From a virus (taxonomy: Duplodnaviria > Heunggongvirae > Uroviricota > Caudoviricetes): DNA of 13,072 nt. A program made the position numbers and the translations under genes. Numbering within the stretch: the first letter of the stretch is position 1; the number at the start of each line of letters is the position of its first letter. Under the pieces are notes generated by a model that saw only the letters and a list, made by a program, of their open reading frames with translations, had not been told where the DNA came from and did not search any database. The DNA lies in IMG/VR virus record IMGVR_UViG_2671180695_000008. One strand, given 5' to 3'. Shown piece by piece: positions 2,732 through 12,644 of the stretch.

Positions 2732-3310
2732 ATGAATAAAAATATTGCTGTGACGGGCAAGGGGTACGCTCGTCCAGTGAAAAAATTCTGCGATATTCGT
2801 GATCTCGTCGTTCTGCGCTTTGATAGTGTGAACGTTCGTGTGGTGTATCTGAACGGCGATCCGTGGTTTGTTGCAAAAGATGTTTGTGCTGCGCTGGAAC
2901 TAACCAATTCGCGTACGGCGTTGCAGATGCTTGATGATGATGAAAAGGGAGTAAATTTAACTTACACCCCAGGAGGAAATCAGAATATGAGAATTATCTC
3001 TGAGTCAGGTTTCTACAAACTAATAGCCCGCAGCCGCAAAGCAACGACGCCTGGCACATTTGCTCATCGTTTCAGTAACTGGGTATTCAGAAATGTGATA
3101 CCAGGTATCAGAAAAACGGGGACTTATGGTATCCCGTGGGGTGCATTACAGGATTTTTCCCGCCGTAAAGAGCAATATCAAATAAGTGCCAGCGAGAAGG
3201 GGAGGGAGCTACAGGCATGTAAGCGCAAAAAGCGTGAGCTGGAGGAAGAAGAAAAAACGCTGATACGTGAATATCAGCCTGAGTTTTACTTTGGTAACCG
3301 CATTCAGTGA
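2732..3310 (+). CDS. Bro-N domain protein (phage antirepressor-like)
   Basis: 192 aa; the segment VRVVYLNGDPWFVAKDVCAALELTNSRTALQMLDDDEKG...ISESGFYKLIARSRKATTPGTFAHRFSNWV has the Bro-N / AntA N-terminal pattern (D/E-PWFVAKDV...L.....A). The C-terminal part is charged and probably coiled. Confidence 0.7.
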   Translation: MNKNIAVTGKGYARPVKKFCDIRDLVVLRFDSVNVRVVYLNGDPWFVAKDVCAALELTNSRTALQMLDDDEKGVNLTYTPGGNQNMRIISESGFYKLIARSRKATTPGTFAHRFSNWVFRNVIPGIRKTGTYGIPWGALQDFSRRKEQYQISASEKGRELQACKRKKRELEEEEKTLIREYQPEFYFGNRIQ

Positions 3311-3340
3311 CAAAACAAAGGCGACCGCAAAAGGGTCGCC
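3311..3340 (-). terminator. Hairpin acting mainly as a minus-strand intrinsic terminator, between the convergent Bro and minus-strand genes
   Basis: Stem GGCGACC (3320..3326) pairs with GGTCGCC (3334..3340) around loop GCAAAAG. On the minus strand it is followed by TTTGTTTTGT (plus 3311..3319). No U-run follows on the plus strand. Confidence 0.6.
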
Positions 3341-3406
3341 AGTGGGAACAAGGGAAAACAAAAGCATCACCAACAATGCCACATTTGCGGCTGGTGGGCA
3401 ATGTGA

Positions 3407-3586
3407 TCAGTCAGATTTGGTTCGTTCCAAGGTTTGCAACGAGAGCTTTTTCCTGTGCTCTTTAAGGAATTTCTCAAGAGCAAACGAACAAGGTGCGAAT
3501 CTTTCTGATTCATGTTCATGCGCTATATTTTTGCGTCGTCTCTTACGAGTTGGTGATGGTGTTTTGGTTGATTCTGTGTCGCTCAT
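3407..3586 (-). CDS. Small basic hypothetical protein (59 aa), absent from the supplied ORF track
   Basis: Translated by hand from the minus strand: MSDTESTKTPSPTRKRRRKNIAHEHESERFAPCSFALEKFLKEHRKKLSLQTLERTKSD*. An AGGA lies 8 nt upstream of the ATG; it follows the 3644..3949 gene and precedes the minus-strand terminator. Confidence 0.45.
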   Translation of the reverse strand: MSDTESTKTPSPTRKRRRKNIAHEHESERFAPCSFALEKFLKEHRKKLSLQTLERTKSD

Positions 3587-3643
3587 GGTGCTGTCCTGTA
3601 AAGCAATGCGCCTGCGTTCCTCAAACTATGGCGCTGATATTGG

Positions 3644-3949
3644 CTATTCATGCTCTTTGACCTTGCGTCGCTGGAGTTCTTCACGCGCGACGGTGACGAG
3701 TTGCCCGATCTCCTCGGCTGCTTTGATGCCGATTTGTTCGACCTTAGCCAGGGCATCCAGTGACGACACAAGGGGATTTTCTCCGCTGCCTTCTGCTTGG
3801 CGGCGGGCTATTTCTCCGCGCATGGCGGTTACGATAAATCCGGCATTGCTTTCACCGTCCAGCTTAACGGATTCCATCCCTTGCATAACATCTAGTGGGA
3901 CTCTGACAGTTGTCAGTTGTGATTTTGCGTTTTTGTTAGCCGTTGCCAT
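3644..3949 (-). CDS. Hypothetical small regulator (possible DNA-binding protein), divergent from the rightward operon
   Basis: 101 aa with a strong SD (TAGGAGTTTCAGAA-ATG on the minus strand). It is transcribed divergently from a palindromic operator region. No family is recognised with confidence; a ribbon-helix-helix-like N-terminus is possible but unverified. Confidence 0.55.
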   Translation of the reverse strand: MATANKNAKSQLTTVRVPLDVMQGMESVKLDGESNAGFIVTAMRGEIARRQAEGSGENPLVSSLDALAKVEQIGIKAAEEIGQLVTVAREELQRRKVKEHE

Positions 3950-3970
3950 TTCTGAAACTCCTAATCATCG

Positions 3971-4048
3971 GTGTGTTTCAGTATACACAAAAAAAGAAAT
4001 ACAAAAAGCCTTGACGTGTGTTTCATGCGCTCATAACATGAAACACAC
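3971..4048. promoter_or_regulatory. Divergent control region with a 12-bp perfect inverted repeat, a third half-site and a candidate rightward promoter
   Basis: GTGTGTTTCATG (4016..4027) and its reverse complement CATGAAACACAC (4037..4048) are separated by 9 bp. A further GTGTGTTTCA half-site lies at 3971..3980. TTGACG (4011..4016), a 17-bp spacer and TAACAT (4034..4039) overlap the palindrome. Confidence 0.55.
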
Positions 4049-4139
4049 CGAAAGGATTGTTGAAATACAAAGAGCAACGCCCCGCAGTGCTGGGAACACA
4101 TACGGGGCGTCTAACCAACAACGTAAACTAGGAGCCGTT

Positions 4140-4337
4140 ATGGTTGCTGTAAATCATATACCACACCTTGTACACACACAAACGGCCTTTGTGTGGCGTT
4201 TTCTGGCACTGAGTGCCGGAGAATCTCAAATCATCCACGTAACCGCCTGGACGGAACGCGAAGCGCGTAGCCGTTGCCCGTCCGGTTGTGTTGCTGTATT
4301 CGCTGCAAAAATCCGCCAGGGAGTGAGTCATGCTTAA
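4140..4337 (+). CDS. Hypothetical small protein (65 aa), possible first gene of the rightward operon
   Basis: ATG preceded by AGGAG at the correct spacing. It shares a frame with a long, compositionally odd ORF (3267..4337) that is otherwise rejected, so coding status is uncertain. Confidence 0.35.
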   Translation: MVAVNHIPHLVHTQTAFVWRFLALSAGESQIIHVTAWTEREARSRCPSGCVAVFAAKIRQGVSHA

Positions 4338-6996: not shown

Positions 6997-7010
6997 TTTT
7001 TTGTAAAAGC

Positions 7011-7232
7011 CATCTACCCCATCTACCTGAACAAAATAAACGCATATTATTCAACATGATAAGTGGGTATAGGGCTAGGTAGAAGGCTAATAAAAGCTCT
7101 CTACCTCTTCTACCTGATTTTATCAGTTTCAGGTAGCAGGGTAGACGGCAGGTAGAGGAGTCAAAAAGCTATCTACCCGCTGAAAGCCGCGCCATTACTG
7201 ACATGATGAGCATTCGGGTAGATGGGTAGAGG
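7011..7232. repeat. Iteron array; candidate replication origin
   Basis: About 11 copies of the core TCTACC / GGTAGA in both orientations within ~220 bp (for example CATCTACCCCATCTACC, CTCTACCTCTTCTACC, GGTAGCAGGGTAGACGGCAGGTAGAGG, GGTAGATGGGTAGAGG). It lies directly downstream of the primase-helicase gene in an otherwise non-coding stretch. Confidence 0.7.
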
Positions 7233-7280
7233 GGGGGAGGCACAACTAAAAACTTTTTAAACGAGGGGGGGTGAAAATAA

Positions 7281-9634: not shown

Positions 9635-10018
9635 ATGCAGAATCATTACAATGACCTTAAGCCAATTGCCGAAATGATGTATCCGGATCCAGCAGTAGAG
9701 GAATTAAAGGCTATTGCTGACAAAATGCGTTTAAGTGAACGCCTTGTTGATATGAATCAGGTGATGGAACTTACTACCCTTAGCCGTCGCACATTGCTAA
9801 ACCTTGAGGCTCGCGGAGAGTTCCCCGAACGCGTACAGGTTACGGAAGGGCGTAAGGCCTGGTATTTAAGTGAAGTGATCGACTGGATAAACAATATTCC
9901 TCGATCTTCTGAATATTGCCGCGTACCTGTCCCAAAAAAGCCAGATGCGGCGCTATGCCTCAAGATTGAGCGTGTACGTCGCAATGCACGGGATGGTCGC
10001 TATAAGTTGATTGGTTGA
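9635..10018 (+). CDS. AlpA/MerR-like HTH domain protein (second AlpA-family member)
   Basis: 127 aa; the segment VDMNQVMELTTLSRRTLLNLEARGEFPERVQVTEGRKAWYLSEVIDWI fits the AlpA-type HTH pattern. It has an N-terminal extension and a basic C-terminus, a GGGGGA SD upstream, and lies immediately upstream of the cos site. Confidence 0.6.
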   Translation: MQNHYNDLKPIAEMMYPDPAVEELKAIADKMRLSERLVDMNQVMELTTLSRRTLLNLEARGEFPERVQVTEGRKAWYLSEVIDWINNIPRSSEYCRVPVPKKPDAALCLKIERVRRNARDGRYKLIG

Positions 10019-10029
10019 TGAAATTAGGG

Positions 10030-10108
10030 CCCGTTCTGGCTGGCGGGTCCTTTCCGGCGATCCGGTAGGCTACGGGGCGGCGACCTCGCGGGTTTTCGCT
10101 ATTTATGA
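10030..10108. other. Lambda-type cos site (cosQ-proximal sequence plus cosN with the 12-nt cohesive end GGGCGGCGACCT)
   Basis: 10072..10108 ACGGGGCGGCGACCTCGCGGGTTTTCGCTATTTATGA is identical to the recalled lambda cosN / left-end sequence (cohesive end at 10075..10086). The upstream GGGTCCTTTCCGGCGATCCGGTAGGCTACG closely matches the recalled lambda right-end sequence. Downstream cosB-like sequence has diverged, and a Nu1-like gene follows. Confidence 0.85.
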
Positions 10109-10219
10109 GCCTTTTTCGGGTGCTGGTGGTGGTTTTGTTGTTCGCTCTATCTCTATGAATAAAAAGGAAAAGATAAAGCCAATACACCAACCTGAAACAT
10201 TACTTAAGTGGGGATATTG

Positions 10220-10762
10220 ATGAAATCGCACCTGATGAACAAAAAAAACATGGCGCAAAGCTGCCATGTAAGTGCGACAGCGTTCGACAAGTGGGGAGTG
10301 ACTCCCGTTGAACGTAAAGGCCGCGAGGCGTTTTATGATGTTGCCAGCGTAATAGACAATCGGGTTAGCAATGCAATTAACCAGATTACAGACGACAAAG
10401 GCGAGATTGATGATGATGAACTCCTACGAGTCAGGATCAGATTGCTGACAGCACAGGCAGAGGCGCAGGAGCTTAAAAACGAGCGCGAACGCGGCGACGT
10501 TATTGATACCGCGTTTTGTATATACGTGCTTTCAAAATTGGCGAGTCAGATTTCTTCAATCATGGACAGCCTGCCGCTTGCCATGACAAGGAAGTTTCCC
10601 GACATGAAGCCGTCTATGCTGGATGGACTGAAAAAAGAAGTTATCAGAGCCTGTAACGCATGCGCAAAACTTGACGAAAACATACCGCTGATGCTGTCCG
10701 ATTATCTGATGGAAACTGCCGGAAACGTACCGGATAAGTTGCAGCCGAATAAAGATAAGTAA
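10220..10762 (+). CDS. Terminase small subunit (lambda Nu1-like)
   Basis: Matches lambda Nu1 by recall (RLTRAQADAQELKNARD...ETAFC.FVLSRIAGEIASILDGLPL...RFPE compared with RLLTAQAEAQELKNERERGDVIDTAFCIYVLSKLASQISSIMDSLPLAMTRKFPD). Start is uncertain: ATG at 10220 (GGGGA SD) is chosen, with alternatives GTG 10208 and ATG 10235. It sits downstream of cos as in lambda. Confidence 0.85.
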   Translation: MKSHLMNKKNMAQSCHVSATAFDKWGVTPVERKGREAFYDVASVIDNRVSNAINQITDDKGEIDDDELLRVRIRLLTAQAEAQELKNERERGDVIDTAFCIYVLSKLASQISSIMDSLPLAMTRKFPDMKPSMLDGLKKEVIRACNACAKLDENIPLMLSDYLMETAGNVPDKLQPNKDK

Positions 10763-10773
10763 CGTAGTACGCT

Positions 10774-11055
10774 ATGACTGAATCCGAAATACTGCGATTA
10801 ATCCGCCGTGCTTGTGGAATCAGCAAGCAGCATGACGAACAGGCCACGCAGCCGGACAGCGTGACCGCAGATAATTATGTGCGTGTAGTGGCTGAGGTGA
10901 TGCGCCGTGACGGTATTGAGCTTAACGGCGTGGATATGCGCAACATACGAACAAGAGTCCTTGAGTTGCTGGCATATCGTCGCCGTTCTCAACAACGGAG
11001 GGAGAGCGCGAAAAACACTTACCAGTGGAAGAAGCCGGAACGATTGCGGCGGTAA
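10774..11055 (+). CDS. Hypothetical basic protein (93 aa) in the position where lambda encodes the large terminase
   Basis: ORF starts 11 nt after the TerS stop and is Arg-rich. No convincing family match; no obvious SD, so possibly translationally coupled. Confidence 0.45.
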   Translation: MTESEILRLIRRACGISKQHDEQATQPDSVTADNYVRVVAEVMRRDGIELNGVDMRNIRTRVLELLAYRRRSQQRRESAKNTYQWKKPERLRR

Positions 11056-11070
11056 CTTGCTGATATTCCC

Positions 11071-11094
11071 GATAACGCAAAATTGCGCTGGCTG
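11071..11094. repeat. Direct repeat GATAACGC-N5-TTGCGCTGGCTG (copy 1; copy 2 at 11257..11280)
   Basis: The two 24-bp copies differ at 3 positions and lie 186 bp apart in the non-coding right arm. Each is followed by a TTGCA/TGCAA-type near-palindrome. Confidence 0.5.
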
Positions 11095-11306
11095 ACTTGT
11101 TGCATTGCAAAAAGTTAAGCAGGAAGGCACGGCCTGTAAGATGGGATGCAGTAAGTAGTTCAAGGCTACCTTGTGCTGGCACGCACAGTTAAGCCGTCGG
11201 TGCTGGATATCCCCCACTGGGGGAAAAGCTGGCTACATCCCTCACATCTGAGGACTGATAACGCGACATTGCGCTGGCTGGCAAAGTGCAAAATTGCACG
11301 ATGGCC

Positions 11307-11468
11307 TAACCCATTGATTATTTCGAAAACCTGCAATGCAGGAAATCGGGGAAGTAAGCCTAAGCTATTGATTGTTTCGAAAACCCCCATTGGGGGATGT
11401 CGGGAAAGTAAGACTAACCCATTGATTCTTCCACAATCCTCAATTTGAGGAGGCCGGAACGTCTACAT
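11307..11468. repeat. Tandem ~54-bp repeat (3 units) each containing a 5-bp-stem, 3-nt-loop hairpin with covarying stems; candidate structured RNA or recognition array
   Basis: Units 11307..11360, 11361..11414 and 11415..11468 share TAA(C/G)C(C/T)ATTGATT...TTCGAAAAC and CGGG.AAGTAAG flanks. Internal hairpins are CCTGC-AAT-GCAGG (11330..11342), CCCCC-ATT-GGGGG (11384..11396) and CCTCA-ATT-TGAGG (11438..11450). The third unit is more diverged. Confidence 0.6.
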
Positions 11469-11769
11469 AGCTGCATCGCCGTAATGATGATTCAGCCCAC
11501 CAGCCAAATCAGCACAGCAACGACAGAATAGCCCGACACAGAAAAACCACGAATATGGGGTTTTTGTTATGACATGGTCATGATGACCACTCATACAAAA
11601 CAGGTAAAGCCCACCAGCCTGATTAAAGGTTAACCGGAAAAAAGCCAGGTATCCAATCTCGATATGGGGATCCCTATATCGACATTAACGCCCACTAAAA
11701 CTGTGCATATATGCATAGAAAAAGCATCCACCAGCTTTATGACGGATGCCGCTCATCTTATAAATAATC

Positions 11770-11790
11770 GTGTATTGCAGTGTGTATTGC
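11770..11790. repeat. Two direct copies of GTGTATTGC(A) near the right junction; candidate integrase arm-type sites
   Basis: GTGTATTGCA at 11770..11779 and GTGTATTGC at 11782..11790, in the same orientation as the three copies beside int. An AT-rich tract lies between them and the att core. Confidence 0.5.
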
Positions 11791-11864
11791 GACTCCTTTA
11801 AACGATAGGTCTGAGCATTCGTAATGTACTGTTTTTAAATTTTATTTTTTCCTGTCTTTTCATA

Positions 11865-11877
11865 AAGGCGATGTATG
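11865..11877. other. Candidate attR core (AAGGCGATGTATG)
   Basis: Matches 967..979 at 12 of 13 positions. Portal homology resumes here (IKAMYAATIE...). Confidence 0.65.
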
Positions 11878-12644
11878 CAGCGACGATTGAAAGTGACCTT
11901 GATACCGAAAAGGCCTTTGAATATATCGCCGGTGCGCCGCAGGGGCAGAAGGATAATCCGCTTATTAATATTCTGGATAAGTTCTCCACCTGGTATGACA
12001 CGAATAGCGTGACGCTGGGTGGTGTCAAAATTCCGCACCTTTTCCCCGGTGATGATCTGAAACTTCAGACCGCGCAGGATTCAGACAATGGATTTTCGGC
12101 GCTTGAACAGGCGCTGCTGCGGTATATCGCCGCCGGTCTTGGCGTTTCCTACGAACAGTTGTCCCGTGATTACTCGAAGGTCAGTTATTCAAGTGCCCGC
12201 GCATCCGCCAATGAGTCGTGGCGCTATTTTATGGGGCGGCGAAAATTTATTGCGTCCCGGCTGGCCACGCAGATGTTTTCCTGCTGGCTGGAAGAGGCAC
12301 TTCTTCGGGGGATTATTCGTCCGCCACGGGCACGTTTTGATTTTTATCAGGCGCGATCAGCCTGGTCACGGGCTGAGTGGATTGGAGCCGGAAGAATGGC
12401 CATTGACGGGCTCAAGGAGGTTCAGGAATCAGTGATGCGCATTGAGGCCGGACTGAGCACGTATGAGAAAGAGCTGGCGCTGATGGGCGAGGATTATCAG
12501 GACATTTTCCGCCAGCAGGTCAGGGAATCTGCAGAGCGGGAAAAAGCCGGACTCTCACGTCCGGTGTGGATAGCGCAGGCGTATCAGCAGAAGATAGCGG
12601 AGAGTCGCAGGCCGGAAGAGGAGACAACACCACGTGAGACGTAA
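11871..12644 (+). pseudogene. Portal protein (lambda gpB-like), C-terminal fragment downstream of the insertion
   Basis: Translation MYAATIESDLDTEKAFEYI...LGGVKIPHLFPGDDLKLQTAQDSDNGFSALEQALLRYIAAGLGVSYEQLSRDYSKVSYSSARASANESWRYFMGRRKF...WIGAGRMAIDGLKEVQESVMRIEAGLSTYEKE matches the lambda gpB C-terminal half by recall. The ORF begins at a fortuitous in-frame ATG, and similarity starts at about 11862. Confidence 0.85.

Follow-up and report, generated by a model that had tools for sequence, protein, structure and literature searches.

Predicted IHF-plus-dyad sites resembling segments of phage roi and rha genes form an array in the tail of a helper-embedded PICI

Introduction

What are the short direct repeats and GC-rich palindromes that crowd the end of a phage satellite, where do they come from, and do they work as RNA or as DNA? 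The question is raised by a tailed-phage record (IMG/VR IMGVR_UViG_2671180695_000008), of which we analyzed one stretch of 13,072 nucleotides, referred to below as the window. A sequence-only reading of the window had singled out a pair of 24-bp direct repeats, two GC-stem hairpins lying between them and a tandem array further downstream, and it had proposed that all of these could belong to one structured locus bounded by the repeats. The elements sit in an ~800-bp non-coding 3′ tail of the satellite, between its last ORF and attR. Here, we describe the satellite, the composition and variation of the array, and its homology to regulator genes of lambdoid phages, and we weigh what the array could do.

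Results

The element that carries the array. According to Pfam, a lambda-type portal gene in the window is interrupted by a satellite of ~10.8 kb, with Phage_portal_2 profile positions 2 to 242 matched at 154-1026 and positions 238 to 354 at 11871-12644. The satellite encodes an integrase, AlpA, a Bro-N protein, a D5-type primase, and SSB, and it has a late zone of capsid and packaging genes, with a lambda E-type capsid protein and a D-type decoration protein. An AlpA-like HTH protein, a TerS-like protein, and a conserved 93-aa ORF are also encoded, and no pRha protein is found among the products. A doubled att motif (tgTGTATTGCa; TGTATTGC, also TGTGTATTGCA) flanks the att core at 1103-1126 and about 11770-11795, and its sequence and spacing agree with the attP motif published for helper-embedded PICIs (HE-PICIs; PMC10111431). 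The published elements (Tommasini, Mageeney & Williams 2023, PMC10111431) and the window have in common the integrase clade, AlpA, the doubled motif and the split of Phage_portal_2 at about profile position 240. Judged by its target, a portal gene cut in two, by its att motif and by its gene content (int and alpA, a Bro zone, primase/SSB, and a late zone), the surrounding element is an HE-PICI of the portal:241 class, an already-known type. The HE-PICI paper (PMC10111431) makes no mention of a tail array, IHF sites or Roi/Rha homology.

An identical context was found in E. coli strain CFSAN064035. The prophage of this strain carries IS621 within the capsid gene and IS1 in the early region, and the helper is for this reason probably defective. 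The satellite with the identical tail in CFSAN064035 has Icd-like and YlcI/YnfO genes where the window has the region of a 356-aa ORF, and a RepA-type helicase in place of the D5 primase, which points to module swapping between satellites. The 356-aa ORF itself (3267-4337) overlaps the end of the Bro-N gene, and its match to a PHROG family ("transcriptional repressor") is limited to the final ~60 residues.

An exact lambda cosN (GGGCGGCGACCT) with lambda-like flanks was located at 10075-10110 (cosN itself at 10075-10086), within ORF 10011-10220 and directly upstream of the gene for the TerS-like protein (184 aa; 10208-10762). Pfam recognizes only the C-terminal, TerL-binding part of Nu1 in this protein, and PHROGs terminase-small-subunit profiles match almost all of it. 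Rather than a short Rpp, the protein may be a TerS chimera whose DNA-binding N-terminus has diverged. Right 3′ of the primase gene there is a non-coding gap (6997-7280) with short tandem repeats at 7010-7027 and 7216-7234 (CCATCTACC in two copies and GGGTAGAG in 2.4 copies), which is likely the replication origin of the satellite. The tail array, 4 kb from the primase gene, does not show the arrangement of a PICI origin, i.e., iterons adjoining pri/rep together with an AT-rich stretch. A plasmid oriT or leading-region origin was also considered for the array and rejected, as the plasmid matches are partial pieces of misassigned chromosomal or PICI DNA.

Composition of the array. Across 11053-11465 (~410 bp), we found an array of related elements, most of which combine a dyad-symmetric palindrome of 13 to 16 bp with an IHF consensus ~22 bp away. 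The 24-bp direct repeats are part of it, with GATAACGCAAAATTGCGCTGGCTG at 11071-11094 and GATAACGCGACATTGCGCTGGCTG at 11257-11280 identical at 22 of 24 positions, and a direct repeat of at least 22/24 arose in none of 100 dinucleotide shuffles of 11000-11999. The flanking halves of the repeat (GATAACGC and TTGCGCTGGCTG) had been read correctly, with a spacer given as five nucleotides that is actually four. The first repeat is contained in an element that we call M1 (11053-11094, plus strand), made up of a near-consensus IHF site, 8 nt, and the palindrome AACGCAA-AA-TTGCGC. The IHF site of M1 (TAACTTGCTGATA, 11053-11065) has one mismatch, the perfect consensus TAACTTGTTGATA being present in several relatives, and 21.5 bp separate its TTGAT core from the centre of the dyad, versus 22 bp in the tandem units. 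The second repeat, M2 (11257-11280, plus strand), carries the palindrome AACGCGACATTGCGC and lacks the IHF part. Between M1 and M2 lies an optional module of 162 bp, T2 (11095-11256, plus strand), which opens with the palindrome TTGCATTGCAA (11100-11110, plus strand) and contains both reported hairpins exactly where they had been placed, CCCCC-ACT-GGGGG at 11211-11223 (CCCCCACTGGGGG, plus strand) and CCTCA-CATC-TGAGG at 11240-11253 (CCTCACATCTGAGG, plus strand). Neither M2 nor these two T2 palindromes has a consensus IHF site. A leader palindrome, GTGCAA-AA-TTGCAC (11286-11299, plus strand), precedes the tandem units and is kept in every relative that has units.

The tandem array proper spans 11304-11465, with a period of 54 bp and 2.3 to 3 copies. 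In unit 1 (11304-11357, plus strand), an IHF consensus on the minus strand (AATCAATGGGTTA, 11307-11319) is followed by the dyad CCTGCAATGCAGG at 11330-11342; unit 2 (11358-11411, plus strand) has the consensus AATCAATAGCTTA at 11361-11373 and the dyad CCCCCATTGGGGG at 11384-11396; and unit 3 (11412-11465, plus strand) has AATCAATGGGTTA again at 11415-11427 and the dyad TCCTCAATTTGAGGA at 11438-11452. All the unit dyads are perfect palindromes of 13 to 15 bp. The two stem families of the hairpins recur here as had been claimed, in unit 2 (CCCCCATTGGGGG) and in unit 3 (CCTCAATTTGAGG, 11439-11451). Perfect matches to the IHF consensus WATCAANNNNTTR number exactly three in the 13-kb window, compared to 0.68 expected (1 of 200 shuffles reached three), and each tandem unit holds one of them, always on the minus strand and at intervals of exactly 54 bp. 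By the consensus, the tandem units thus carry predicted IHF sites.

Two ORFs, one on the plus strand (11154-11445) and one on the minus strand (11166-11390), traverse the array. They stay open because the units are 18 codons long and stem from coding sequence, and both look like ghost frames, not genes. A repeat protein encoded by the minus-strand ORF was considered and rejected in favor of a ghost frame of copied gene fragments, given an in-frame stop where unit 3 begins, numerous non-synonymous differences between relatives, and a 55-bp unit spacing in one relative.

Homology of the tandem units to roi. BLAST against phage genomes showed each unit to be an 86 to 93% antisense copy of one short segment of roi (codons ~40-57), with a different allele for each unit, and the alleles concerned belong to lambdoid or Stx phages. 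Unit 3 matches roi of the JLK-2012/phi330 type (class A; 92 to 96% over 50 nt, 41/44 alignment columns), unit 2 matches roi of the Stx2-II/PA11/HUN-2013 type (class B; 90.6% over 53 nt, 40/44 columns), and unit 1 matches roi of CP-1639 (87.8%) and the roi-C allele (38/44 columns), its dyad being of the HK022 type (class C). The matches always fall at the same codons and are confined to 44 to 54 bp. The dyad of unit 2 is perfect in the satellite, while its phage counterpart is imperfect (CCCCCAATGGTGG; GGTGG, constrained by a Val codon). As for the two GC-stem hairpins in T2, their sequence identifies them as degenerate extra copies of the roi class-B dyad (11211-11223) and of the class-A dyad (11240-11253, with a centre 1 bp longer). 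No phage match was found for T2.

The N-terminus of Roi shows a weak Phage_pRha domain and its C-terminus a KilAC/ANT domain. Across 80 roi loci taken from IMG/VR, the alleles diverge mainly within the first ~65 residues, and each allele has its own palindrome at the copied position, encoding PQIE, PQFE, PPMV or PALQ; the alleles recombine just past the palindrome. A link between recognition helix and dyad class was suggestive for four roi alleles and was broken by a fifth. Two alleles with an identical predicted recognition-helix core (VKRTIE) have different dyads, a pattern that would fit structure-based recognition better than sequence-based recognition. The copying extends to further roi-like genes, since an O157:H7 PICI adjoining clpS (L003) has four units, two of which have other palindromes and find their matches in further Stx phage genes that resemble roi and are labeled "DNA-binding protein." One of the Stx phage genes matched by these L003 units has a perfect palindrome of 23 bp.

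Roi is reported to bind inside its own gene, close to an IHF site, with IHF stabilizing the complex. In the HK022 genome, the exact dyad was found in roi only, and only three perfect IHF consensus sites occur genome-wide, one of which adjoins the roi dyad. This arrangement fits Clerget & Boccard (1996, J Bacteriol 178:4077), which describes HK022 Roi as "DNA-binding," and we infer that it is exactly this palindrome that Roi binds.

Homology of the 24-bp repeats to rha. The palindrome class of the 24-bp repeats (GCGCAAnnTTGCG) is also found in rha of phi80 and of Trabulsiella, at the corresponding position. The phi80 gene carries GCGCAATTTTGCGC, a 19/20-nt antisense match to the repeat (E=7), and the Trabulsiella gene carries GCGCATTATTGCG and, after 10 nt, AATCAATGAGTTA; the match of the M class to these two genes extends over 13 to 20 nt only. 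The palindrome GCGCAnTnTTGCG is read in different frames by phi80 and Trabulsiella rha (QRNFAP versus SAHYCV), and it is therefore as nucleic acid, not as protein, that the palindrome is selected. In the phi80 record, rha is annotated with "DNA synthesis inhibition in IHF- hosts." On the sense strand, the 24-bp motif also matches the "SERKIALA" part of other Rha genes, but this match was discounted as a product of the palindromic core and codon choice.

A palindrome just 3′ of the HTH-coding part was seen in pRha-domain genes generally, i.e., in rha of phi80 (L325) and Trabulsiella (L327), with the same placement in HK022 roi (L125/L335) and in a Stx1 phage (L326). A consensus IHF site comes after it in the roi alleles and in Trabulsiella rha, whereas phi80 rha and the L326 allele have none there. 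Each allele has a palindrome of its own, yet a palindrome is kept even when the reading frame across it differs. This suggests that it is an unrecognized intragenic regulatory site of pRha-domain genes.

Together, the comparisons suggest that the array elements are antisense copies of one ~50-bp segment within pRha-domain regulator genes of lambdoid phages, with three roi alleles as the probable source of the three tandem units and the phi80-type rha class as that of the 24-bp repeats. The composition of a Roi/Rha autogenous site, an intragenic palindrome plus an IHF segment, is reproduced with 38 to 41 of 44 positions matching three roi alleles.

Variation among relatives. The direct repeats flank an optional 186-bp insert (11095-11280) that consists of T2 and the second copy of the motif. 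This insert is missing from L010, L074, L168, L172, and L177, where the motif occurs once and is directly followed by the GTGCAAAATTGCAC leader and the units; L160 was left out of this T2-less set as an incomplete contig. In L004 and others, the motif also occurs once and is followed by a different module, T3. L002 has T2 (86% identity), as do about 14 IMG/VR loci. Since the two repeats are copies of one array member and flank only an optional insert, they are not boundaries of the locus. What remains of the proposal made from sequence alone is one locus of related elements (11053-11465), without the bounding by 24-bp repeats.

The number and class of units differ among satellites like cassettes, from 0 to 4 units, and in one relative a 55-bp unit spacing breaks the frame and keeps the sites. 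Tails with these units are also found in PICIs with another integration site, beside clpS. Conservation in related elements had been named as the test of the repeats and hairpins, and it was borne out: the 24-bp motif and the palindromes are kept in related satellites (E. coli genomes and IMG/VR contigs), and in the comparative alignment the stems are not only kept but covary. Among the matches listed, two span the full 815-bp tail at 99.9 to 100% identity, and coverage of the tail reaches at least 80% in 49 E. coli genomes. A scan of genome contigs for the type-A unit gave real matches in E. coli and Trabulsiella only, and the taxonomic range of these units appears narrow. A 14-mer scan of viral contigs returned mostly chance matches, the useful loci being L010, L019, L027, L069, L074, L091, and L118, and a search of genome contigs for relatives by the neighboring 93-aa protein found none.

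Two other features of the tail were noted. About 1200 E. coli genomes contain pieces of the 815-bp tail, and the majority of these matches cover 11494-11740, which is the most widely conserved part of the tail. Three AGCCCACCAGCC-like motifs (at 11494, 11608, and 11725, with 114- to 117-bp spacing) and an adjacent inverted repeat with 16-nt arms (11655-11686) are located there, and a strong terminator-like hairpin lies on the minus strand at 11750-11723. Furthermore, an ~83-bp segment of T3 (about 3239-3321 in L004; also in L002 and many IMG/VR relatives) is a second cos, for a different helper family; it is 90 to 94% identical to the genome ends/cos region of SfV/SfII/ST64B-type phages and 82% identical to the annotated cos site of phiP27. 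With a second cos in the tail of some relatives, the tail can therefore be regarded as a collecting place for phage cis-sites.

Palindromes in DNA or stems in RNA. Nine satellite units and six phage sites could be aligned without gaps, and CTAA....TTGAT was invariant among them. In these 15 sequences, the dyad is 95.6% paired, 4 of its 6 pairs have changed on both sides, and there are a few mismatched cells and a single wobble in 90 cells; the three window units, like the cleanest copies, have stems in which every pair is Watson-Crick. None of 500 shuffles reached the measures for paired cells, for cells changed on both sides or for covariation, and controls in which the position was slid collapsed. 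Structure prediction, which had been proposed for both strands of the whole region, showed better folding than in shuffles on the plus (z −3.9) as well as on the minus strand (z −3.5). Palindromic DNA gives just this outcome, and because both strands fold equally well there is no preference for RNA structure over a DNA palindrome. Searching Rfam with the whole window at E≤1 returned 0 matches, including to the P4 CI/C4/isrK immunity RNAs, and a promoter and terminator scan of the region gave nothing above chance. The non-coding satellite copies retain the IHF core together with perfect dyads. An invariant IHF core in non-coding copies, the 54-bp phasing, and the fact that only an ~50-bp portion of roi is ever copied point to a function as double-stranded DNA.

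Discussion

The architecture of the array, its homology to phage genes, the covariation of the dyads, the enrichment of the IHF consensus, and the modular variation among satellites are the observations that an explanation has to cover. We propose, with a probability of roughly 0.5, that the array provides DNA sites of several specificities, for IHF and for phage Rha/Roi proteins, and serves as a sensor or a sink. The elements would act as double-stranded DNA, in which IHF would bend each unit and the 54-bp spacing (about five helical turns) would bring the bends into phase, while the adjoining dyads would bind the Rha/Roi proteins of several helper or competitor phages. The satellite tail would then be a multi-specificity operator array, either sensing phage early-gene expression or soaking up Rha/Roi proteins, and we keep both predicted functions as alternatives. 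That IHF and Roi/Rha bind here, and with what biological consequence, we infer from the sites themselves.

Some points speak against this reading. With no fewer than six dyad classes, an equal number of Roi/Rha specificities would be needed; together with the one mismatch between recognition helix and dyad, this would agree better with recognition by structure. The match of the 24-bp repeat to phi80 rha covers only 19/20 nt (E=7). The helper prophage of CFSAN064035, the host of an identical tail, has no roi gene in its nin region, and the array is for this reason not matched to the resident helper. Finally, the uniform antisense orientation of the units is also predicted if the array works through antisense RNA. 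More tentatively, we consider it possible that satellites keep a growing, cassette-like collection of rha/roi operator copies as a decoy or sensor against several phages.

The alternative raised by the orientation is that the tail is transcribed from the plus strand along with the satellite operon and that the transcript pairs with the roi/rha mRNAs of different phages and lowers the expression of the regulator, perhaps also that of Q, which lies downstream. Every unit runs antisense to roi and in the direction of all the satellite genes, the complementarity extends over 44 to 53 nt at 86 to 96%, there is no convincing terminator between the last ORF and the array, and different units match different alleles, as would be expected of a targeting array. 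However, what was copied is the IHF-plus-dyad segment alone, and never the ribosome-binding site or other parts of roi. The flanks drift around an IHF core that stays invariant, the change that sets unit 2 apart from its target perfects the palindrome, and a strict 54-bp spacing would be meaningless for RNA. With no promoter-like site beside the array, no Rfam match, and strands that fold equally well, we regard antisense RNA as unlikely, even if it is the alternative that survives best.

The units could also be scars or hotspots of neutral recombination, i.e., roi/rha fragments left by satellite-phage exchange of the kind described as "Bro network" domain shuffling, which would have no function of their own or act as homology patches only. 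The units are indeed gene fragments in which a ghost reading frame is still open, the tail is a mosaic with cassette-like gain and loss and with direct repeats flanking the 186-bp insert, and the roi alleles themselves recombine just after the palindrome. Yet the same ~50 bp were kept each time and neighboring roi sequence never was, the non-coding copies have a perfect IHF core and perfect dyads, and the 55-bp spacing of one relative breaks the frame and spares the sites. The near-identity of the tail (99.9 to 100% in two full-length matches among those listed, with at least 80% of it covered by 49 E. coli genomes) also argues against neutral scars, and we find this explanation improbable.

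The structured locus of the sequence-only reading could be taken as structured RNA, such as an sRNA or a set of 3′-UTR hairpins stabilizing the operon mRNA, with the stems kept for folding alone. Folding that beats shuffles, stems that covary, and a location at the 3′ end of the operon agree with it. Against it stand the minus strand, which folds as well as the plus strand, the near absence of wobble pairs (1/90 cells), stems of only 5 to 6 bp with loops of 1 to 4 nt, and the lack of an Rfam match. It also leaves the invariant IHF consensus, the 54-bp phasing, and the allele-specific phage homology unexplained, and is in our view very unlikely.

Least probable of all are accessory packaging (cosB-like) or recombination (attP-arm) sites used by the TerS-like protein, AlpA or Int together with IHF: lambda cosB and attP typically have IHF sites, the tail is flanked by the packaging module and attR, and relatives place a second cos in it, but an exact lambda cosN is already present upstream of the TerS-like gene (10075-10110), the HE-PICI attP motif at 11770-11795 is about 81 bp from the core and leaves the array 400 to 560 bp outside (PMC10111431), units also occur in PICIs with a different integration site next to clpS, a number of 0 to 4 units is unlike an essential site, and no single satellite protein can read all the dyads because they differ within one satellite. 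A cos site within the array itself was rejected as well, as the array lacks the makeup of a lambda-type cos and the exact cosN is at 10075-10086.

If the array is indeed a set of sites for IHF and Rha/Roi proteins, its closest known counterpart is the Roi/IHF site in HK022 roi. Unit 1 has the dyad CTGCA-T-TGCAG of this site, and its IHF consensus is placed in the same way relative to the dyad, at a distance of about 22 bp. Within the HK022/phi80/P22 roi/rha group, units 2 and 3 are near-copies of the same segment in other roi alleles, and the 24-bp repeats of the window carry the phi80-type rha palindrome. The phages have one site per genome, within coding sequence, whereas the satellite has 3 to 7 sites of different classes, in tandem and non-coding. 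Satellite P4 offers a further parallel. Its late promoters Psid and PLL carry a site for Ogr, the activator of the helper P2, so that P4 responds to its helper, and these Ogr sites are single dyads at -55 of the promoters. The window likewise has (predicted) DNA sites for a helper-encoded regulator, but it differs from P4 in that its array has no evident promoter, several specificities, and IHF sites alongside.

In the E. coli chromosome, BIME-1 and RIP (RIB) elements combine REP palindromes with an IHF site. Like them, the array is non-coding, follows an operon, and joins short GC-rich palindromes to an IHF consensus. Its elements differ in being allele-specific copies of phage genes on a mobile satellite, without an Rfam match, and its palindromes are presumably unlike the REP consensus. 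With regard to PICIs themselves, those of E. coli copy cosQ and cosN of the helper, paired with altered recognition sites, and some have two cos (Fillol-Salom 2019; Feiss review 2022). The likeness to such cos mimicry and Rpp redirection is the second cos that relatives carry in the same tail, and the difference is that the elements of the window are not cos-related, the satellite having its own cos at 10075.

Our literature search found no paper connecting PICIs with Roi, Rha or IHF sites in the tail, and an array of rha/roi-derived IHF-plus-dyad sites appears undescribed in the literature searched. It would be a further case of satellites copying cis-sites of their helpers, on a host element whose type is already known.

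The intragenic palindrome-plus-IHF module may account for an effect noted long ago, the block that Rha and Roi impose on phage growth when the host lacks IHF. Were satellites to collect operators in this way, the collection could be one side of an arms race that drives the diversity of DNA-binding domains and palindrome alleles of Roi/Rha, and the class content of an array could mark which phages a satellite interacts with. How E. coli PICI-type satellites sense or manipulate their helpers is only partly understood, the known pieces being AlpA induction, Rpp, and cos mimicry. If our reading is true, one satellite could detect or neutralize several helper or competitor phages, and the arrayed copies of sites from helper regulator genes would add a new cis-acting layer to the satellite-phage interaction.
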